Shown here: piece by piece, positions 3,035 through 45,746 of the stretch
Layout: each line of letters opens with the position of its first letter
How positions within the stretch are numbered: position 1 is the first letter of the stretch
Origin: a virus
Length of the DNA: 64,000 nucleotides
Reading direction: 5' to 3' (one strand)
IMG/VR virus record: IMGVR_UViG_3300045988_115474
Notes under the pieces: generated by a model
Seen by the model: only the letters and a program-made list of their open reading frames with translations
What the model was told of the DNA's origin: nothing
The model's database searches: none
Translations under genes and position numbers: made by a program

Positions 3035-3060
3035 CTACATAACTACATAATATAGGATAC
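3035..3060 (+). promoter_or_regulatory. degenerate copy of the conserved element (CTACATAACTACATAATATAGGATAC) upstream of the 3077 gene
   Basis: Shares CTACATAAT..AGGATAC with the B-orientation copies; followed by AAAAGGAGAGAGTGATATG. Confidence 0.35.
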
Positions 3061-4403: not shown

Positions 4404-4703
4404 GTGTTTGACATGAAGAAGTTTAATTCGATCTTAAATAAAGGGTTCAATATGACTTTTGCAAATGGTATTACTGCAAGCGTCCAGTGGGGAGCTGGGA
4501 ATTATTGCGATAATCATTTTAGCAAAGACTTCTCTTTCTCAAAAGAAGCAAGTTCTAATACAGCAGAAGTGGCCGCATGGAATGAAAGCGGCGAATGGGT
4601 TACAAATAAGCTCTACGACACCTGGGATGATGTTGCTGGGTATCTTTCACCAAATGAAGTGTTACAGTTTTTGAATAACTGTGCGAATTACAAAACGGCT
4701 TAA
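4404..4703 (+). CDS. hypothetical protein
   Basis: ORF-track ORF; AAAAGGAGTGTTTGACATG RBS. Confidence 0.5.
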   Translation: MFDMKKFNSILNKGFNMTFANGITASVQWGAGNYCDNHFSKDFSFSKEASSNTAEVAAWNESGEWVTNKLYDTWDDVAGYLSPNEVLQFLNNCANYKTA

Positions 4704-14299: not shown

Positions 14300-15178
14300 A
14301 TGGGAGCATTAGCACAGGAAGAGTATGAATCGAATTTTATAAGTATTGACGAATATTTAGATGAAGATGTTAATCAAGAAACAACTCAATATTCTAAAGG
14401 AAAAAATTACAACATCACTCGATATTCTGTGGCACGAAATGGTGAAGTTGAACCGATTCGTGACGTAAAAGATATTCAGGCTATTTCTGAATATTTCTAT
14501 AATAAAAAGAAGTATAGAGATTGGTGCTTGTTTAATCTTGGTATTGCCACAGGATTTCGTGCGAGTGACCTTCTTCGATTTAGAGTTGAAGATGTATCGC
14601 ACCTGGTTGATGGAAAACTTGTTGTTAATGAAACAGTCAAGGTTCGCTTTAAGGAGAAAAAGACAGGAAAATATCGCGATGTTGTAATTGGGCAGAACAC
14701 AATGCAGATTATAGCTGAATATATTCGGCTAACGAGGCCGTCGTATCATTCGTGGCTTTTCCCATCTCAGAAAGGAAGTAGCAAAAATTCATTAAGAACG
14801 AATGGGGGTATTTCTTCTTGGAAAGTTGGAGGGGGAAAATCAAATGCAGTGAAAGTTGTAAAATATGAAGCTGATCCAAAGAAGAAAGGTGACCCGATTG
14901 ATGTTGATACGTTTGGACAGATTATGAGAAAAGCTCAAAAAGACTTAGGGCTTTCTTATAAACTTGGGACGCATAGTTGTCGAAAGACTTTTGGTTATCA
15001 ATTCATGATGAATCATAAAGATGACCAGATGGCACTTGCGTGGTTGCAACATAGCCTGAATCACAGTAATCAGGCTATTACGCTTCACTACATTGGATTA
15101 AATGCAGACGTTGATAGAGAATATTATTCTAACATCGACTATGGCGTTGATTGTCATTGTTCAATTGTAGCAATGTGA
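14300..15178 (+). CDS. tyrosine site-specific recombinase (integrase / XerC-D family)
   Basis: Catalytic signature in canonical order and spacing: box I R (GIATGFRASDLLRFR), HxxR (GTHSCRKTFGYQ), a second H (WLQHSLNHSN), and Y (AITLHYIG) about 33 aa after HxxR. AAAAGGAGATATAGTATATG RBS. Confidence 0.7.
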   Translation: MGALAQEEYESNFISIDEYLDEDVNQETTQYSKGKNYNITRYSVARNGEVEPIRDVKDIQAISEYFYNKKKYRDWCLFNLGIATGFRASDLLRFRVEDVSHLVDGKLVVNETVKVRFKEKKTGKYRDVVIGQNTMQIIAEYIRLTRPSYHSWLFPSQKGSSKNSLRTNGGISSWKVGGGKSNAVKVVKYEADPKKKGDPIDVDTFGQIMRKAQKDLGLSYKLGTHSCRKTFGYQFMMNHKDDQMALAWLQHSLNHSNQAITLHYIGLNADVDREYYSNIDYGVDCHCSIVAM

Positions 15179-20888: not shown

Positions 20889-20916
20889 TTGACTAAAACA
20901 AAATGGTGTGTATAAT
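20889..20916 (+). promoter_or_regulatory. sigma-70-type promoter (TTGACT-16-TATAAT)
   Basis: TTGACT 20889-20894 and TATAAT 20911-20916 in the gap upstream of ATG 20959. Confidence 0.5.
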
Positions 20917-20958: not shown

Positions 20959-21285
20959 ATGAGTGAAAAAAAGGTTTTAGGAGTTATACAGGCCGAGAGT
21001 TTTCTGAAATACATAAGAAAAAAGCGAGTGTGGGTCTGCTTTGCTTACAATGGTGTGGATGTTCACATGGTCTGCAAAAAGATGAACGACATTGGTGTAG
21101 AGACGCATGGGATTGTCAAAGGTATTGGTTTTTTTGGAAACGAAAGTCATGTTGAGTTGCGGAAAGAATGCCATGAAGTAAGGATGGTGGAGCTTAGGCC
21201 GGGCACTAAGGAAAAAGCCTACGAGATGATCTTCGATGATGCCAGTGTTTTTGTGTCAGAGAATCCTGAGTTGTACGGGCACTAA
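20959..21285 (+). CDS. hypothetical protein (109 aa), moron-like, with its own promoter
   Basis: In frame with ORF-track 20929-21285; ATG 20959 after GCGGAAGGCGGTATTTCG. Confidence 0.5.
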   Translation: MSEKKVLGVIQAESFLKYIRKKRVWVCFAYNGVDVHMVCKKMNDIGVETHGIVKGIGFFGNESHVELRKECHEVRMVELRPGTKEKAYEMIFDDASVFVSENPELYGH

Positions 21286-21304: not shown

Positions 21305-21333
21305 TTGACTTCTGTGATGGTATCCTGTATAAT
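21305..21333 (+). promoter_or_regulatory. consensus promoter TTGACT-17-TATAAT containing the conserved GTATCCTGTATAATGTAGCTA element
   Basis: TTGACT 21305-21310, TATAAT 21328-21333; directly upstream of the MazF-like gene. Confidence 0.65.
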
Positions 21334-21376
21334 GTAGCTATGGAACGGAGCTACACCATCATAGAGGAGAAAGACT

Positions 21377-21796
21377 ATGGATAACAATATTGACCCGAAG
21401 GTCGGAGAGGTTTGGTTGGTTGATCTATCCAATGCGACAGGTCATCAGCAGCGCGGTATTCGACCGTTTGTTGTGACAAGCAACAATAAGCGTAACCTCT
21501 TCAGCCCAACAATCAAGGGGAATCCGTTATCTTCAAGAATATACAAGCGTTCTCCGGTTCATGTTCTACTCTCAAAGGAAGACTGTGATTTCCTAGAGGT
21601 TGACAGTATTGTTCTTTGTGAAGAGACTGATACCCTTAATAAAGGACAGTTCATCAAGAGACTTGGTGTCTTGTCGGAGCGTCAAATGAATATGATCGCA
21701 ATGGCAAGATGCAAGGATGAACCGTTTTTGCTCGCAGCATTCCTGAGCGGCGTACAACATACTATGGATTTTCAGAATTTTGCCGCATTTGCTTGA
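21377..21796 (+). CDS. MazF/PemK/Kid-family endoribonuclease-like toxin with a ~25-aa C-terminal extension
   Basis: KVGEVWLVDLSNATGHQQRGIRPFVVTSNNKRN...SIVLCEETDTLNKGQFIKRLGVLSERQMNMIAMA follows the MazF/PemK pattern (GxxxxVDxxPxxGxExxGxRPxVV...TxDKxRL). Strong RBS AGAGGAGAAAGACTATG. Confidence 0.65.
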   Translation: MDNNIDPKVGEVWLVDLSNATGHQQRGIRPFVVTSNNKRNLFSPTIKGNPLSSRIYKRSPVHVLLSKEDCDFLEVDSIVLCEETDTLNKGQFIKRLGVLSERQMNMIAMARCKDEPFLLAAFLSGVQHTMDFQNFAAFA

Positions 21797-21849
21797 TTTT
21801 TTATAAGGTTTAATGGTACACTACATATAATAAGAAGGAGTGTGCCACT

Positions 21850-22776: not shown

Positions 22777-22781
22777 AGATA

Positions 22782-22803
22782 GGGGCTTCGGCCCCTTAAT
22801 TTT
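22782..22803 (+). terminator. rho-independent terminator
   Basis: GGGGC-TTCG-GCCCC hairpin followed by TTAATTTT. Confidence 0.75.
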
Positions 22804-22810
22804 AACACGT

Positions 22811-22831
22811 TAGCTATATAACACAGGATAC
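22811..22831 (+). promoter_or_regulatory. conserved element, B orientation (TAGCTATATAACACAGGATAC)
   Basis: Exact 21-mer shared with 2380-2400; 33 nt upstream of ATG 22864. Confidence 0.5.
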
Positions 22832-22863
22832 AGAAAATAGTATTTGAATGGAGAATGATAACA

Positions 22864-23445
22864 ATGTCTGATTTCAAGAAATTTCGTGCACTGCTGCAGG
22901 ACCACTTCAATGAGATGGTGAAGGGCGAAAACCCTCTGTTTATCACCGATGCAGACGAGGATGAACTGTACAATCTGTATCTCGACAGCTTCCCGGCTGG
23001 CACGAATGAGTTGTTCCGCAAGCGCCGTGAATATGATTGCTCCTGCTGCCGCCGTTTTGTAAAGAATATCGGTAAGCTGGTGGCGTTTGATGCAAATCAC
23101 AATCTAGTTTCTATTTGGGATTTTGATGCCAAGTCCGACAAGTATCAGCCAGTCGTTGATGCGCTGGCCGATTACGTGAAGAGCCGTACAATTGTGAATC
23201 CGTACTTCGTCAGCCGCAATATGATCGGTTCTGGCAATATGTTCGGCACTGAGATGAACTTCGAGTACGACGAAAACCATAAAGATGTACGCACTTGGGA
23301 TCATTTCGCAGTCAAGATTCCGCAGCGTTTCATTATCAGCGGAGATGACCAGCTGTCCGGCGTTGGGTTCTCTGAGACGAAACATGATTCCTTTGTTGTC
23401 AAGGTTCAGGGCGCTACTGAGCGGGTTATGAAAGTTGTTGTTTAA
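22864..23445 (+). CDS. hypothetical protein
   Basis: In frame with ORF-track 22855-23445; ATG 22864 sits 9 nt after TGGAGAA. Confidence 0.5.
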   Translation: MSDFKKFRALLQDHFNEMVKGENPLFITDADEDELYNLYLDSFPAGTNELFRKRREYDCSCCRRFVKNIGKLVAFDANHNLVSIWDFDAKSDKYQPVVDALADYVKSRTIVNPYFVSRNMIGSGNMFGTEMNFEYDENHKDVRTWDHFAVKIPQRFIISGDDQLSGVGFSETKHDSFVVKVQGATERVMKVVV

Positions 23446-23459
23446 GAGGAGAAATTATT

Positions 23460-23843
23460 ATGGAAAAGAATCTGTTTGAAATTGCAACCCGTAATCGCTA
23501 TCGCTTCAACTATAAGGGTATTATGACTGTTGAAGATCTGTGGGATCTGAGTGTCGAGGCACTAGATGCGATTTTTAAGACCCTGAATCGTCAGAAGAAG
23601 ACCGCAGACGAAGACTCCTTGCTGGCTGTTAAGAGTGCCGAAGATACCGAACTGGCAAACAAGATTGAGCTGGTCAAGTATATCGTGTCTGTCAAGCTGG
23701 CTGAATCTGAGGCTCGTGTGGATGCAGCCGAGAAGAAGGCGCAGCGCGATAAGATTATGAAGATTGTGGCAAAGAAGAAGGACAAGGAGCTGGAAGATAT
23801 GGACGTAGACCAGCTGATGAAGAAGCTGGAAGAGTTGAACTAA
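23460..23843 (+). CDS. hypothetical protein with Lys/Glu-rich helical C-terminus
   Basis: ORF-track ORF; AGAGGAGAAATTATTATG RBS. Confidence 0.5.
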   Translation: MEKNLFEIATRNRYRFNYKGIMTVEDLWDLSVEALDAIFKTLNRQKKTADEDSLLAVKSAEDTELANKIELVKYIVSVKLAESEARVDAAEKKAQRDKIMKIVAKKKDKELEDMDVDQLMKKLEELN

Positions 23844-23914: not shown

Positions 23915-26125
23915 ATGAGAACTTTGCTTCTTTTCCGTGGAGCACCCGGATGCGGGAAATCCACCTATATTAAAGAGCATGATCTGGAAAAGTATACGCT
24001 TAGTGCCGATACGATTCGCCTTATGTGTCAGGGTGGTCAGGAAACCCCAGCTGGCACAATGGAAATCTCTCCTCAGAACGATGATGTTGTCTGGGATATG
24101 CTCTTTAAACTGTTGGAGGTTCGGATGTCTCACGGTGAATTTACCGTGATTGATGCAACGAATTCCAAGACGGTCGAAATGAATCGTTATAAGAATCTTG
24201 CAAAACAGTATCGTTATCGGATGTATGTTATTAACATGACGGACCTTCCGATCGAGGAATGCAAACGAAGAAACGCTCAGAGAGAATGGCTGAAGCGAGT
24301 TCCTGAAGCGGCTATTGATAAGATGTACGCTCGGTTTGCTACTCAAAAAGTTCCTTCTGGCGTGACAGTTCTTCCTTCTACTACGGATGTGATGTCCGAT
24401 TTGAACTACTGTCCGAATGACTTCAACCAGTGGAAGAAGATTCATGTCATCGGTGATGTTCATGGCTGTTATACTTGTTTAAGTGAATACCTTGGTGAGA
24501 TGAAGGACGACGAACTTTATATCTTCGTTGGTGATTATCTCGATCGTGGCATTGAAAACGTTGAGGTATTCAAGTTCTTGTGTGATGTTGTAAATAACAA
24601 CCGCAAGAATGTGATCCTTTTGGAAGGGAATCACGAGCGTTGGCTGAACAAGTGGGGGCATGATGAACCGGTTCAGAGTGAAGAGTTTGCAAACTACACT
24701 CGTCCGCAGCTCTTTAAAGCCGGTATTGACAAGAACACTGCTCGTAAGATCTATTCCAGAGTTGGCCAATGTGCCTACTTTGAGTATGATGGGAAGCAGT
24801 ATTTCGTGAGCCACGGTGGTTTGAGTTATCTGCCTTATTTTCTTCCTTTTGTATCTGCTGACCAGATGATTAAAGGTGTGGGTCGCTATCCTGATATGCT
24901 AACCGTGGCTGAGTCTTGGGAAAAATCGATGCCGGATAGCTACATTCAGATCTTCGGTCATCGAAATGTGCAGGATGTTCCTATTGATATGGGGCATCGG
25001 TGTTACAACCTCGAAGGAAAAATCGAGTTTGGTGGATATCTCCGTTGCGTGGAACTTGAACACGGTCAGTCAATCAAATGTGTAGAAACAAAGAACGATG
25101 TGTTCCGAAAAGAGGAGCCAAAGACTGAAACTGCCGTTGAAATGAAAACTGAGTTCGATAACGCAGAACTTGTCAGTAAGATGCGTCAAAGCAAATATGT
25201 GTTTGAGAAGCGATTCGGAGATATTTCTTCTTTCAACTTCTCTCGTGAAGCATTTTATAAGAAGCACTGGGATGAGGTTTCTACCAAAGCAAGGGGATTG
25301 TTCATTAACACAAAGACGAATAAGATTGTAGCTCGAAGCTATGATAAGTTCTTTGCGGTCGATGAGCGGAATGAAACGAGAATTGGAAACCTACAGAACA
25401 CTTTGAAGTTCCCGGTGACTGCATATCTGAAGGAAAACGGATTTCTTGGCATTGTCTCATATGATGCAGAACAGGATGGTCTGTTCATTGCAAGTAAATC
25501 CACTCCTGAAGGGCCTTTTGCAGATATGTTCCGAAAGATTCTCATGGATACGACTTCTGATGAAGACCGTAAGAATCTGAAGGAAGTTGCAAAAGAGAAT
25601 GGTTCCATCATTTTTGAGGTGATTGATCCTATAAATGATGCTCATATCATCGAATACAAGAAACCGCACATTGTTTTGCTGGATATTGTTGCGAATGATA
25701 TGAACTTCAGTGTGATGGATTACGATGATCTGAAGCGTGTTGCTGAAAAGTGTCATTTGCAGATTAAGGAGAAGGTTAAGATCTTTGAGTGCTGGAGTGA
25801 ATTCTATCCTTGGTATGAAGAAGTCATGAATGAGAATTATCTGTACCATGGCATCGAGCATATTGAAGGCTTTGTTTTGAGAGATAACAACAATTTTATG
25901 TTTAAGCTGAAGCTTCCTTATTATAAGCACTGGAAGTTCTTGCGTGGTGTTATGCAGAGCGTTCAGAAGCGTGGCTATTATGAAAATACCGCAAAGTTGT
26001 TTACTGCTGAGGATAACCTGTTCTATGGTTGGATGCGTGAGCAACGAGAGAAAGATCAGGAATCTTTCTGCAAGAAGGGTATTATTCAGTTACGGAATGA
26101 ATTCTATGAGAATCGGCACGAATAA
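23915..26125 (+). CDS. polynucleotide kinase / phosphatase / ligase (bacterial Pnkp-like RNA end-healing and sealing enzyme)
   Basis: N-terminus: P-loop kinase FRGAPGCGKST. Middle: calcineurin-like phosphoesterase motifs HVIGDVHGC, GDYLDRG and GNHER. C-terminus: nucleotidyltransferase/ligase-like motifs KENGFLG (motif I, K-x-N-G), EGFVLRD (IV) and FKLKLP (V). RBS AAAAGGGGAGAAAACAATG. Confidence 0.75.
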   Translation: MRTLLLFRGAPGCGKSTYIKEHDLEKYTLSADTIRLMCQGGQETPAGTMEISPQNDDVVWDMLFKLLEVRMSHGEFTVIDATNSKTVEMNRYKNLAKQYRYRMYVINMTDLPIEECKRRNAQREWLKRVPEAAIDKMYARFATQKVPSGVTVLPSTTDVMSDLNYCPNDFNQWKKIHVIGDVHGCYTCLSEYLGEMKDDELYIFVGDYLDRGIENVEVFKFLCDVVNNNRKNVILLEGNHERWLNKWGHDEPVQSEEFANYTRPQLFKAGIDKNTARKIYSRVGQCAYFEYDGKQYFVSHGGLSYLPYFLPFVSADQMIKGVGRYPDMLTVAESWEKSMPDSYIQIFGHRNVQDVPIDMGHRCYNLEGKIEFGGYLRCVELEHGQSIKCVETKNDVFRKEEPKTETAVEMKTEFDNAELVSKMRQSKYVFEKRFGDISSFNFSREAFYKKHWDEVSTKARGLFINTKTNKIVARSYDKFFAVDERNETRIGNLQNTLKFPVTAYLKENGFLGIVSYDAEQDGLFIASKSTPEGPFADMFRKILMDTTSDEDRKNLKEVAKENGSIIFEVIDPINDAHIIEYKKPHIVLLDIVANDMNFSVMDYDDLKRVAEKCHLQIKEKVKIFECWSEFYPWYEEVMNENYLYHGIEHIEGFVLRDNNNFMFKLKLPYYKHWKFLRGVMQSVQKRGYYENTAKLFTAEDNLFYGWMREQREKDQESFCKKGIIQLRNEFYENRHE

Positions 26126-26190: not shown

Positions 26191-26266
26191 GGCCCTATGG
26201 CGGAATTAGGCATACGCAACAAGCTCAAACCTTGTAAAATTCTCAGTTCAAATCTGAGTAGGGCTA
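26191..26266 (+). tRNA. tRNA with anticodon CAA in a class I (short variable arm) fold; isotype unclear (Leu-like anticodon without a long arm)
   Basis: Manual fold: acceptor GGCCCTA/TAGGGCT (G1-U72), D arm GCGG..ACGC, anticodon stem ACAAG/CTTGT, loop CTCAAAC, T arm CTCAG-TTCAAAT-CTGAG, A73 and encoded CCA. Confidence 0.5.
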
Positions 26267-26348
26267 CCAACCCATTTGCAGATGGGTAAGTGCTAGAATA
26301 TTGGCAAATTGGAAAGACGGTTGACTGCTGGACAGACAGCTTTGATAT

Positions 26349-26431
26349 GCTACCGTGGTGGAATGGCAGACACCGGAGACTTAAAATCTCCTGTCGGCAA
26401 CGACGTGCCCGTTCAAGTCGGGTCGGTAGCA
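26349..26431 (+). tRNA. tRNA-Leu (anticodon TAA), class II
   Basis: Acceptor GCTACCG/CGGTAGC, anticodon stem GGAGA/TCTCC with loop CTTAAAA, 15-nt variable arm with GTCG/CGAC stem, T arm GCCCG-TTCAAGT-CGGGT, A73. Confidence 0.75.
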
Positions 26432-26438
26432 CTAATAT

Positions 26439-26511
26439 CCGGGTGTAGCTCAGTTGGAAGAGCGCCTGCTTTGGGAGCAGGAGGCCGCAGGATCATGACC
26501 TGTCACTCGGA
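26439..26511 (+). tRNA. tRNA-Pro (anticodon TGG)
   Basis: C1-G72 acceptor (CCGGGTG/CACTCGG), D arm GCTC-AGTTGGAA-GAGC, anticodon stem CCTGC/GCAGG with loop TTTGGGA, T arm GCAGG-ATCATGA-CCTGT (A54/U58 variant), A73 and CCA. Confidence 0.65.
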
Positions 26512-26602
26512 CCAGCCCGAAAGGGTATGTAGAATTTTTCATTCACATTATTCCCAGCCCTCTGGAAACAGAGCAGTGTGGCATAGCAAGCTGGGTAGAT
26601 TA

Positions 26603-26674
26603 CGAGGATTAGCCAAGCGGATAAGGCAGTGGAATTTGACTCCACGACCGCAGGTTCGATTCCTGCACACTCGA
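26603..26674 (+). tRNA. tRNA-Gln-like (anticodon TTG) with two acceptor-stem mismatches
   Basis: D arm GCCAAGCGGATAAGGC, anticodon stem GTGGA/TCCAC with loop ATTTGAC, T arm GCAGG-TTCGATT-CCTGC. Acceptor CGAGGAT/ACACTCG pairs at only 5 of 7 positions. Confidence 0.5.
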
Positions 26675-26681
26675 TTTATAT

Positions 26682-26763
26682 GCGGGTATGGTGTAACTGG
26701 CAGCCACGCGGATTTTAGGTGTCCGTGCCGAAAGGCGTGAGGGATCGTGCCCCTCTACCCGTA
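26682..26763 (+). tRNA. tRNA-Leu (anticodon TAG), class II
   Basis: Acceptor GCGGGTA/TACCCGT, anticodon stem CGGAT/GTCCG with loop TTTAGGT, 13-nt variable arm (GCC-GAAA-GGC), T arm GAGGG-ATCGTGC-CCCTC, A73 and CCA. Confidence 0.7.
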
Positions 26764-26869
26764 CCACGGTCATAGAATGGTTGCGTACCGTTTGTTGATC
26801 TCCTTTGGCCACTATTATTCCCAGCTCGCTCGTAAGAGTGCAGTAGTGCTTTGTAAACTGGGTGATTGT

Positions 26870-26941
26870 GCAGTTATTGTGTAGTTGGTAAGCACGCTTG
26901 CTGATGAAGTAAGAGGACGAGTTCAAAACTCATTGACTGCA
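26870..26941 (+). tRNA. tRNA-like element (possible degenerate tRNA or pseudogene)
   Basis: Acceptor GCAGTTA/TGACTGC pairs fully and the D arm is good (GTGT..GCAC), but the anticodon loop TGATGAA lacks U33, the T stem has a mismatch and the variable region is 3 nt. Confidence 0.3.
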
Positions 26942-27144
26942 AAATATGAAATCAGTTGTTCTAGCTCGTTCGTGGATTGGCCGTACATTGGCGACCGGAA
27001 AGACGTCATACCGGTAAAGGACGTCAAGCCAGACAAGAAGAGAAATAAGGTGTAAGCCGACTAGCTATCGGATAAATACTCTTCGGTTCGCCAGAAAACT
27101 AGAATGTAAAACGAATGGTTGGCTGTTTCTGATTTCATTTATAT

Positions 27145-27217
27145 GCGACTGTAGTTCAATTGGCAGAGCGTCAGATTTCCAATCTGAATGTTGCGGGATC
27201 GTGCCCCGTCAGTCGCT
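27145..27217 (+). tRNA. tRNA-Gly (anticodon TCC)
   Basis: Perfect acceptor GCGACTG/CAGTCGC, D arm GTTC..GAGC, anticodon stem TCAGA/TCTGA with loop TTTCCAA, T arm GCGGG-ATCGTGC-CCCGT, U73 and CCA. Confidence 0.75.
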
Positions 27218-27351
27218 CCACACGCAGCCCCTTACGCTGCACCGGTTGCTCAGAGCCGAAAGAAACCTATATGTTACGACATGGTTGCCAAGAGTGATCA
27301 TATTGGAACGCGACGTAGCTTGGATAGTGAGAATTAAATTCTGAGGTATAC

Positions 27352-27420
27352 TGCTGGATAGCTTAATGGTAAAAGCGCTCGGAAACGCCGAGAGATAAGG
27401 TTCAATTCCTTCACTGGCAT
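27352..27420 (+). tRNA. degenerate tRNA-like element (anticodon loop of only 5 nt)
   Basis: Acceptor TGCTGGA/ACTGGCA (6 of 7 pairs including G-U), D arm GCTT-AATGGTAA-AAGC, T arm TAAGG-TTCAATT-CCTTC; the anticodon arm CTCGG-AAACG-CCGAG is too short to be functional. Confidence 0.25.
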
Positions 27421-27447
27421 CACGCCGATGAAAGTCGGCGTTTGCAT

Positions 27448-27521
27448 GGGATAGTAGCTCAGTTGGTCAGAGCTGGCGGCTCATAACCGCTTGGTCGCGA
27501 GTTCAAATCTTGCCTGTCCCA
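27448..27521 (+). tRNA. tRNA-Met (anticodon CAT), elongator or Ile2-like (G1-C72 paired, so not an initiator)
   Basis: Acceptor GGGATAG/CTGTCCC, D arm GCTC-AGTTGGTCA-GAGC, anticodon stem GGCGG/CCGCT with loop CTCATAA, T arm GCGAG-TTCAAAT-CTTGC, A73 and CCA. Confidence 0.8.
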
Positions 27522-27627
27522 CCAGCCCGATAGGGCATACATAAAATCTGCTAGAACTTTTGTTTTATAAGCGAATTTATAATATGACGTTAATACGTCT
27601 ATTATTTTTCGCTCATTTTTAAAGTTT

Positions 27628-27648
27628 TAGCTATATAATACAGGATAC
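27628..27648 (+). promoter_or_regulatory. conserved element, B orientation (TAGCTATATAATACAGGATAC), immediately upstream of the RBS of the methyltransferase operon
   Basis: 20 of 21 identity with the other copies; followed by AAAAGGAGG. Confidence 0.5.
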
Positions 27649-30892: not shown

Positions 30893-30911
30893 GATGTGTA
30901 ATACAGGATAC
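30893..30911 (+). promoter_or_regulatory. partial copy of the conserved element (GTGTAATACAGGATAC)
   Basis: Shares TAATACAGGATAC with the B-orientation copies; 37 nt upstream of ATG 30948. Confidence 0.35.
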
Positions 30912-45586: not shown

Positions 45587-45611
45587 CAATTATATTGGTA
45601 TCCTGTATAAT
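45583..45611 (+). promoter_or_regulatory. consensus promoter TTGACA-17-TATAAT with embedded GTATCCTGTATAATATAGCTA element
   Basis: TTGACA 45583-45588 and TATAAT 45606-45611; overlaps the last codons of the RecD-like gene. Confidence 0.65.
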
Positions 45612-45657
45612 ATAGCTATAAAAAGTCTCCATCTCGGAGGCTTAAAATTCTCTCTTT

Positions 45658-45677
45658 AACTACATAATACAGGATAC
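45658..45677 (+). promoter_or_regulatory. conserved element, B orientation (AACTACATAATACAGGATAC)
   Basis: Second of three element copies within 180 bp. Confidence 0.45.
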
Positions 45678-45726: not shown

Positions 45727-45746
45727 AACTATATAACACAGGATGC
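45727..45746 (+). promoter_or_regulatory. conserved element, B orientation variant (AACTATATAACACAGGATGC), directly upstream of the ligase RBS
   Basis: Followed by GCAAGGAGGCTTTATG. Confidence 0.45.

Follow-up and report, generated by a model that had tools for sequence, protein, structure and literature searches.

The DNA analyzed here, called the window, is a stretch of 64,000 nucleotides (64 kb) from the ~135-kb genome of the virus recorded in IMG/VR as IMGVR_UViG_3300045988_115474, and the gene under study encodes a 139-residue protein of the MazF/PemK endoribonuclease family. An earlier note, made from the sequence alone, had described this gene as a stand-alone toxin gene lacking an antitoxin partner. 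Our comparison shows that mazF does not stand alone and occupies the center of a conserved three-gene module. In all eight lineages inspected (the window, L081, L082, L084, and L094 to L097), the trio keeps a fixed order and strand, with a gene for a protein of 101 to 125 amino acids (aa), then mazF, then a gene for a protein of 308 to 348 aa, and the outer genes differ. In the window the first protein has 108 aa and the last one, probably a repressor built on an integrase fold, has 308 aa. The features of the module are collected in Table 1.

The product of mazF is a genuine MazF/PemK family member, and sequence comparison makes this assignment secure. The profile search that the earlier note had named as a check placed the protein in the toxin family PF02452 (PemK_toxin; E value of 1.4e-19; 70.7 bits, where the gathering score is 23.1), with a match that spans residues 8 to 109 and profile positions 1 to 103 of 109. 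It also matches PHROG 1936, "MazF-like growth inhibitor" (E value of 1.5e-20), and aligns over ~100 residues, at ~35 to 38% identity, with MazFs of known structure from S. aureus (E value of 1e-13), B. cereus, and B. subtilis (1e-10), all of which bear out the family first proposed. The automatic label of its protein cluster in public records is "PemK-like protein [Bacteriophage sp.]." Predicted structures were made for the upstream and 308-aa proteins; MazF was compared by sequence alignment, from which we infer an SH3-like barrel fold. The catalytic pair of Bacillus MazF consists of Arg25 and Thr48, and Ser in place of Thr is functional in M. tuberculosis MazF7 (PMC7354611). In our alignment of 22 subfamily sequences, the equivalent of Arg25 (R29) is invariant, and position 52, the equivalent of Thr48 and a Ser in the window protein, is Ser or Thr in every sequence. 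Other positions conserved among UAC(A)-type MazFs have been tabulated (PMC8634880); the subfamily keeps the equivalents of G6, G18, P26, N36, and K/R85, has Asn at the equivalent of P15, and reads IKGNP in the strand preceding the catalytic Thr, which is hydrophobic in usual MazFs.

The C-terminal extension pointed out in the earlier note is real, and the same alignment shows it to be conserved across the subfamily, as a tail of 20 to 25 residues with the consensus ARxxDEPFLxxAFLxGVQxTxxFxxFxxYA. In a search space of 1.84 billion representative proteins, the tail motif was found in only three representative clusters, which are the subfamily itself and its fragments. We rejected the idea that the tail is a fused antitoxin peptide, as it has no similarity to solved PDB chains and is found among these representatives neither by itself as a protein nor attached to a different domain. 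A 63-aa metagenomic protein (P0218) joins an unrelated 27-residue N terminus to the exact MazF tail (MNMIAMARCKDEPF to the end), and it could be an assembly or frameshift artifact or a variant from which the MazF core has been deleted.

Within the module, MazF is a slow-evolving core flanked by two fast-evolving partners. Pairwise identities between the eight lineages average 66% for MazF, 24% for the downstream partner, and 18% for the upstream one, and inside the window's own lineage the corresponding means are 97.6%, 85.6%, and 82.2%. The ratio of nonsynonymous to synonymous substitution rates (dN/dS), computed against the window copy with 60 to 78 close relatives, is 0.034 for mazF (0.026 for its core), compared with 0.13 and 0.11 for the upstream and downstream genes, respectively; the value for mazF therefore indicates that MazF is strongly maintained. 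Exact or near-exact copies of the window MazF lie on ~147 IMG/VR contigs, mostly of 110 to 140 kb, homologues at 57 to 77% identity lie on further contigs from metagenomes, 130 kb long at most, and the repressor-like partner is indexed in 753 blocks of the sequence collection. The carriers of the module are large (~125- to 140-kb) SPbeta-like phages from human-gut metagenomes, and the gene content of the window is likewise SPbeta-like, with genes for YorF, AAA_24, a DnaE-type polymerase, NrdD, ThyX, a RecD2 helicase, dUTPase, and Band_7. A small HTH_3 gene lies just 5' of the trio in L094 to L096, as expected in a lysogeny-control region.

The 308-aa protein was rightly flagged by the earlier note, together with the upstream protein and the tail, as a possible neutralizer of the toxin, and what had gone unrecognized is its identity as a protein of the MrpR/SroF type. 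Its sequence and predicted structure indicate that it is probably a DNA-binding repressor and not a recombinase. In a Foldseek search with the predicted structure, the top PDB entries were 9rd5 (phi3T SroF bound to DNA, probability 1.00), 9rgl (the SroF-Sar complex), 8a0a (MrpR), and 8bpz and 8bj6 (YopR), with true recombinases interleaved among the matches. Box I is the catalytic position that was mapped, and there the catalytic Arg of XerA aligns with Thr138, which is invariant in all 17 sequences of the family alignment. Two full-length orthologues match the Pfam profile MrpR_N_CB, at 35.9 bits (L081) and 32.2 bits (L084), and the former also touches MrpR_C_cat; close relatives of the window protein have precomputed MrpR_C_cat matches, some of them marked weak. 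The likeness to MrpR is remote and is detectable by profile and fold only. MrpR, for which the names YopR and SroF are also in use, is the master repressor of SPbeta-family phages. It has an integrase fold but no recombinase activity, and the early promoters at which it binds the repeated element SPBRE include the one that drives its own operon, yopM-R (PMC10516654). The asymmetric box bound by SroF is 26 bp long, and the protein binds it in monomeric form (bioRxiv 10.1101/2025.11.27.690993). No other repressor-type protein, whether helix-turn-helix, AimR, or sigma factor, was recognizable in Pfam and PHROG surveys of the 64 kb.

The arrangement of transcription signals would tie mazF to this repressor-like gene. 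The promoter of mazF, described as perfect in the earlier note, is indeed present and is near-perfect, one position short of the 12-position consensus; like the promoter of the upstream gene, it is strong and of the sigma-70 type. It is followed by a good ribosome-binding site (RBS), also noticed before, with the sequence AGAGGAG located 7 nucleotides (nt) 5' of the ATG. Between the two, the inverted repeat at the start of the predicted mazF transcript may be a 5' stabilizer or a hairpin bound by a regulator. The downstream gene has an internal promoter, whose architecture (TTGnnn, a spacing of 17 to 18 nt, TGn-TAT(T/C)CT, and TACATA) recurs in all eight lineages and was flagged by the promoter scan in L082 and L084; the scan missed it in the window because only 8 of 12 positions fit the consensus. 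Among close relatives, the -10/start region and the last nine codons of mazF, which lie over the -35, are invariant. Elsewhere in mazF the third-codon positions vary throughout, on which ground an antisense RNA or an overlapping gene was rejected. The spacer between mazF and the repressor gene measures 51 to 68 nt across lineages and holds a motif conserved in all eight, tGGTAtyCtTACATAt. This motif was considered as a MazF self-cleavage site or an RNA structure and set aside, as the alignment shows it to be mainly the extended -10 promoter; RNAalifold gave no consensus structure for the spacer, and a cleavage role for the invariant TACATA after the internal -10 is speculative. Across the lineages, the interval from mazF to the repressor gene has no conserved terminator, and a hairpin terminator closes the unit. 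The most economical reading of these signals is a nested-promoter unit, in which a strong, regulatable mazF promoter would act with read-through to the repressor gene, and a weak promoter, constitutive or autoregulated, would serve the latter alone.

Table 1. Features of the mazF module and copies of the repeated element in the window
Feature	Position	Strand	Remarks
Promoter of the upstream gene, TTGACT-16-TATAAT	20889..20916	+	11/12 consensus positions; homologous promoter in diverged lineages, flagged by the scan in L084
Upstream small gene, 108 aa, first of the trio	20959..21285	+	Beta-rich product, predicted PH-like/YojF-like fold
Promoter of mazF, TTGACT-17-TATAAT	21305..21333	+	11/12 consensus positions (scan); promoter at the same place in diverged lineages
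Repeated element, copy at the mazF promoter, GTATCCTGTATAATGTAGCTA	21320..21340	+	Overlaps spacer and -10; candidate operator
Inverted repeat GTAGCT-N9-AGCTAC	21334..21354	+	5' untranslated region, at start of predicted mazF transcript; invariant in 63 distinct related sequences
mazF-like gene, 139 aa	21377..21796	+	Core residues ~8 to 109; subfamily-specific tail ~114 to 139
Internal promoter of the repressor gene	21793..21822	+	-35 TTGATT over the mazF stop codon, 18 nt, extended -10 TGg-TACACT, invariant TACATA
Gene for MrpR/SroF/YopR-like integrase-fold protein, 308 aa	21850..22776	+	Putative repressor; profile, predicted structure, residue loss
GC-rich hairpin terminator closing the unit	22781..22796	+	Terminator scan; hairpin at the same place in all other lineages inspected
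Repeated element, "+" copies	2320-2337, 21320-21337, 45598-45615	+	Each overlaps spacer/-10 of a TTGACW-17-TATWAT promoter
Repeated element, "-" copies	2383-2400, 3043-3060, 22814-22831, 27631-27648, 30894-30911, 45660-45677, 45729-45746	-	Immediately 5' of a + strand gene's RBS, frequently following a hairpin

The mazF promoter carries a copy of a repeated element of 18 to 21 bp, whose recurrence, already remarked upon in the earlier note, holds up in numbers: the 14-mer GTATCCTGTATAAT has nine copies in the window at two mismatches or fewer against 0.43 expected, and the asymmetric element GYATCCTGTRTWAYRTAG(CTA), counted as its 18-mer, has ten copies against 0.03 expected. The "+" copy at 21320 and the "-" copy at 22814, the latter immediately 5' of the next gene's RBS, lie on either side of the mazF-repressor pair, and two further pairs (2320/2383 and 45598/45660) form close inverted repeats whose arms are ~65 bp apart. 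Across 77 related loci the core of the element is invariant and the neighboring spacer bases vary. An asymmetric site of ~20 bp, occurring in either orientation where transcription units begin, fits a monomeric repressor of the SroF/MrpR type, and the element is our predicted operator for the 308-aa protein. The "-" copy at 22814 also marks a mosaic boundary, because the junction between different downstream gene contents falls exactly there. In the window, two extra genes (22855-23843; 196 aa, PHROG 1735, and 127 aa) separate the repressor-like gene from a gene for an RNA repair enzyme (Pnkp-Rnl1, see below); in many close relatives (among L088 to L093) the latter begins ~135 nt after the repressor-like gene, and two different downstream genes are found depending on the relative.

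The conclusion of the earlier note that no MazE-like antitoxin is at hand was confirmed. In type II MazEF operons the antitoxin gene lies beside the toxin gene, in most cases overlapping it, is cotranscribed with it, and encodes a DNA-binding domain (AbrB/MazE, RHH, Phd, or HTH). No MazE-like open reading frame (ORF) was found next to mazF or elsewhere in the window, and none of its 65 small ORFs matched an antitoxin family. The upstream protein had no match in Pfam, PHROG, PADLOC, NCBIfam, or PDB sequences, and the viral structure models that resemble it are uncharacterized orthologues only; it is a candidate noncanonical antitoxin or regulator. The gap between its gene and mazF, previously given as ~70 nt, is actually 91 nt in the window and ranges from 71 to 124 nt across lineages, with an independent strong promoter inside. 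The promoter of the upstream gene itself is shared by diverged lineages in the form TTGACTTTTAATCT...TATAATAyAAyCAAA (L081, ~4480-4560; L082, ~4470-4530; L084, 4489-4560). Just after its -10, these three lineages have an ACAA-N4-7-TTGT inverted repeat, not obvious in the window, which on its sequence could possibly be an operator for a different regulator.

Several properties of the SPbeta group of phages bear on the interpretation of this module. Host MazF promotes lysogeny of phi3T, whose repressor-operon protein phi3T_93 frees MazF from MazE by binding MazE (PMC10769878). AimX and YosL block MazF in lytic growth (PMC10769878), and such MazE-like inhibitors are encoded at a distance from any toxin gene (bioRxiv 10.1101/2023.04.27.537455). 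MazF has been reported to degrade most phage mRNAs while sparing the repressor operon. Because phi3T and SPbeta wire host MazF into lysogeny in this way, a mazF gene located in a repressor unit is best read as the phage's own arm of such a circuit. We therefore propose, as a plausible but still tentative model, that the window phage carries its own MazF as an arm of an SPbeta-type lysis-lysogeny circuit and that this MazF is restrained transcriptionally. Under this model, mazF and the repressor gene would form a nested-promoter operon of the lysis-lysogeny control region, and the 18- to 21-bp element at the mazF promoter would be the operator of the repressor-like protein, so that in the lysogen transcription of mazF would be shut off and the repressor gene would remain active through its internal promoter. 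Expression of mazF would come soon after infection or upon induction, and MazF would cut RNA and damp lytic as well as host gene expression. The choice between lysis and lysogeny would be biased or buffered by this action, as it is by host MazF in phi3T, with the difference that the nuclease would here be supplied by the phage. The toxin would be held in check chiefly at the level of transcription, and the upstream protein or the tail may add a posttranslational control in place of MazE. A distal MazF inhibitor may also be encoded in the other ~70 kb of the phage genome, a possibility that we keep because SPbeta-family phages encode AimX and YosL far from toxin genes.

The parallel with the repressor operon of SPbeta and phi3T (sro, yopM-R) extends to its layout. 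In both, an integrase-fold protein without the catalytic Arg is encoded last in a same-strand unit; the yopM unit of SPbeta has SPBRE at its first promoter, as the window unit has the repeated element at its own. Both units are connected with MazF, and the window phage has an SPbeta-like genome size and SPbeta-like replication genes. The differences are that SPbeta and phi3T modulate host MazF through phi3T_93, AimX, and YosL, whereas the window unit encodes the nuclease itself, that the window operon has two to three genes against six in SPbeta and phi3T, and that the repeated element is unrelated in sequence to the 26-bp box of phi3T.

A further parallel concerns the pentamer UACAU, which is the motif of B. 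subtilis MazF (PMC10769878; bioRxiv 10.1101/2023.04.27.537455) and is enriched in SPbeta and phi3T transcripts (bioRxiv 10.1101/2023.04.27.537455). In the window, UACAU is the most strand-asymmetrically enriched pentamer, with 111 occurrences observed against 73 expected (Markov z of +6.1, against -0.6 for its reverse complement). Its density is 2.7 per kb outside genes against 1.5 per kb inside, and one site, at 21822, lies in the spacer between mazF and the repressor gene. An avoidance of UACAU inside the operon was considered, and the counts there are too small to mean anything. We found no sense-strand-specific depletion of any 5-mer or 6-mer in the window of the kind that would indicate self-sparing; the words with strong depletion are palindromes of the restriction-site type. 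ATTAAT is absent where 19 copies are expected, CCWGG, GGWCC, TTCGAA, CTTAAG, GCCGGC, and CTCGAG are depleted, and GATC-containing pentamers are depleted under codon shuffle, an avoidance of palindromes that suggests several restriction systems in the host.

A number of observations count against this lysis-lysogeny model or limit it, starting with the fact that we infer all of its functional steps. The likeness of the window 308-aa protein to MrpR is modest: it scores 20.7 bits on MrpR_N_CB, below the cutoff of 27, and its AlphaFold model is of moderate quality (pLDDT of 67, with ~88 for the N-terminal domain; TM ~0.3). The repeated element shows no covariation with variants of the repressor-like protein; within the lineage this test is uninformative, since the core is invariant across repressor variants. 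Moreover, the "-" copies could be a special class of promoters lacking a -35, and not operators. Concerning transcription, a weak hairpin in the mazF-repressor spacer of L084 means that cotranscription may be partial. As for the enzyme, a conserved Glu in the beta1-beta2 loop, which is E24 in the E. coli enzyme and E20 in those of Bacillus and D. audaxviator, is needed for activity or substrate recognition, activity depending on it in two other MazFs (PMC8634880), and the subfamily has a nearly invariant Gln24 in its place, which makes the activity and the specificity of the window MazF uncertain. Under synonymous-codon shuffle, UACAU has a z of 4.1 and ranks only 16th among 1,024 pentamers, and we therefore treat its enrichment as a suggestive, weak parallel. 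No member of the AimR, AimP, AimX, or YosL families was found in Pfam and PHROG surveys of 64 of the ~135 kb, peptide genes being hard to detect. Finally, the temperate lifestyle of this phage is putative, and two scans of representative genomes for its host gave no match.

Beyond the module, at 23915-26125 and 1.1 kb 3' of the repressor gene, the window encodes a 736-aa fusion of an AAA_33 kinase, a Metallophos domain, and a T4-Rnl1-type RNA ligase (RNA_lig_T4_1). From its domains this protein (Pnkp-Rnl1) looks like an RNA healing-and-sealing enzyme. Its gene is followed by eight tRNA genes (26191-27524), one of which (26869-26942) was called by ARAGORN as a tRNA-His with the anticodon ATG instead of the usual GTG and may be a miscall or an unusual phage tRNA. 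A 736- to 754-aa Pnkp-Rnl1 gene comes directly 3' of the mazF-repressor pair in L082, L084, L096, and L088 to L093, and this is not the case in L081, L094, and L095.

Three other explanations of the module have to be weighed. It could be a three-component toxin-antitoxin (TA) or abortive-infection accessory of a prophage, serving prophage stabilization or phage exclusion, with the upstream protein as a new MazF antitoxin, MazF as the effector, and the MrpR-like protein as the regulator. The upstream gene does occupy the antitoxin position, syntenic in all eight lineages, and its sequence changes far more rapidly than that of the toxin, a common trait of antitoxins and immunity proteins; in addition, MazF-like genes recur beside lysogeny genes in gut Firmicute phages such as TR-TP1, the usual site of prophage accessory or defense genes. 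We nevertheless find this explanation doubtful. The predicted structure of the upstream protein shows neither an antitoxin-like fold nor a DNA-binding domain, the gap with its independent strong promoter would leave its dosage uncoupled from that of the toxin, unlike in type II systems, and no PADLOC defense model fits any of the three proteins. A mean identity of 18% for this protein against 66% for MazF also leaves no conserved binding interface evident. Three-component TA systems such as omega-epsilon-zeta and paaR-paaA-parE, and RacR-YdaS, in which a prophage toxin is silenced by a prophage repressor, share with the window module a toxin gene and a separate regulator, possibly also repression in place of a labile antitoxin, but their gene order and protein families differ, and the upstream protein is only a candidate antitoxin.

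Quite improbable, in our judgment, is that MazF acts without any antitoxin in lytic host shutoff or antidefense, with collateral RNA damage healed by Pnkp-Rnl1 and buffered by the phage tRNAs. The strong mazF promoter without an accompanying antitoxin would suit such a role, MazF products carry the 2',3'-cyclic phosphate and 5'-OH ends that are substrates of a kinase-phosphatase-ligase, and the Pnkp-Rnl1 gene is a direct neighbor of the pair in the lineages listed above and a near one in the window, ahead of the tRNA genes. Yet the synteny with the repair gene is missing in three lineages, the invariant partner of mazF is the repressor homologue and not the repair enzyme, and Pnkp-Rnl together with tRNAs is the classical countermeasure to host anticodon nucleases. 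The search for depleted words gave no strong mark of self-protection of phage mRNA either. The suggestion of free-standing host shutoff made in the earlier note finds little room, as the linkage to a repressor points to lysis-lysogeny or immunity control, the motif-avoidance test was negative, and UACAU is enriched on the sense strand. Very improbable, finally, is a domesticated, weak MazF fold that binds and does not cut, either as a decoy titrating a host MazE-type antitoxin or as an RNA- or protein-binding regulator acting through its tail. The replaced loop Glu, the Asn at the P15 equivalent, the IKGNP strand, and the unique conserved tail speak for it, and phi3T_93 is a precedent for a phage protein that binds host MazE. 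However, the catalytic Arg and Ser/Thr and most RNA-contact positions are invariant, a Ser at the Thr position works in MazF7, and the dN/dS of the core is as for an active enzyme, though a binding module could show the same.

The lysis-lysogeny model can be carried further, to a specific form that we regard as unlikely. A very widespread clade of large human-gut phages would have internalized the MazF arm as an antitoxin-less, tailed MazF, silenced by the repressor through the repeated operator. This MazF would drive or stabilize lysogeny by cutting UACAU-rich lytic transcripts, and the conserved UACAU just 5' of the repressor start site would allow MazF to separate the repressor message from that of MazF itself. 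If true, the toxin would be controlled by transcription and mRNA architecture and not by an antitoxin, and it would act as one component of a viral developmental switch.

With the MazFs of B. subtilis, B. cereus, and S. aureus, all specific for UACAU, the window protein shares the profile, the catalytic Arg and Thr/Ser, and the G, P, N, and K positions; it differs in having no adjacent MazE, in the Glu-to-Gln replacement, in its exclusive tail, and in being phage borne and linked to a repressor. Phage MazF-like genes without an annotated antitoxin are already common. Relatives of the PHROG 1936 genes occur in 76 deposited phage records, all at <40% identity and generally annotated without an antitoxin, and these genes of other phages have neither the window MazF tail nor an MrpR-like partner; the literature searched holds no functional study of any of them. 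In the cultured Thomasclavelia phage TR-TP1 (PQ571309.1; L179 1034-2354), a MazF-like gene lies just 5' of an integrase-fold gene, and the 91-nt spacer between the two contains a promoter. We rejected it as the same module, its partner being a true catalytic tyrosine integrase (Pfam E value of 1e-35) unrelated to the 308-aa family, and likewise Perkons, in which the neighbor is CoiA-like. A MazF gene beside lysogeny genes may be a recurring arrangement. In the literature searched, we found no description of the MazF/MrpR-like pairing, the internal promoter architecture, the exclusive tail, or the PH-like upstream partner, and a nucleotide search of deposited phages returned a partial human-fecal contig as its sole match and no close cultured relative. 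Elsewhere in the window, a 292-aa protein (14300-15175) is a genuine member of the Phage_integrase family (E value of 1e-20) with weak XerC/D-like matches, and a Bro-N domain protein is also encoded; by their domains, both are consistent with a temperate lifestyle.

Should the lysis-lysogeny model hold, the module would offer an example of a toxin restrained without an antitoxin. If gut phages carry their own MazF beside the same type of repressor, the MazF link would be a general design and not an oddity of Bacillus, and it would become testable outside Bacillus by means of a compact three-gene cassette, in a very abundant clade of gut phages. Thousands of gut virome annotations as "PemK-like" and "integrase" would then need to be read again as a lysogeny-control module.

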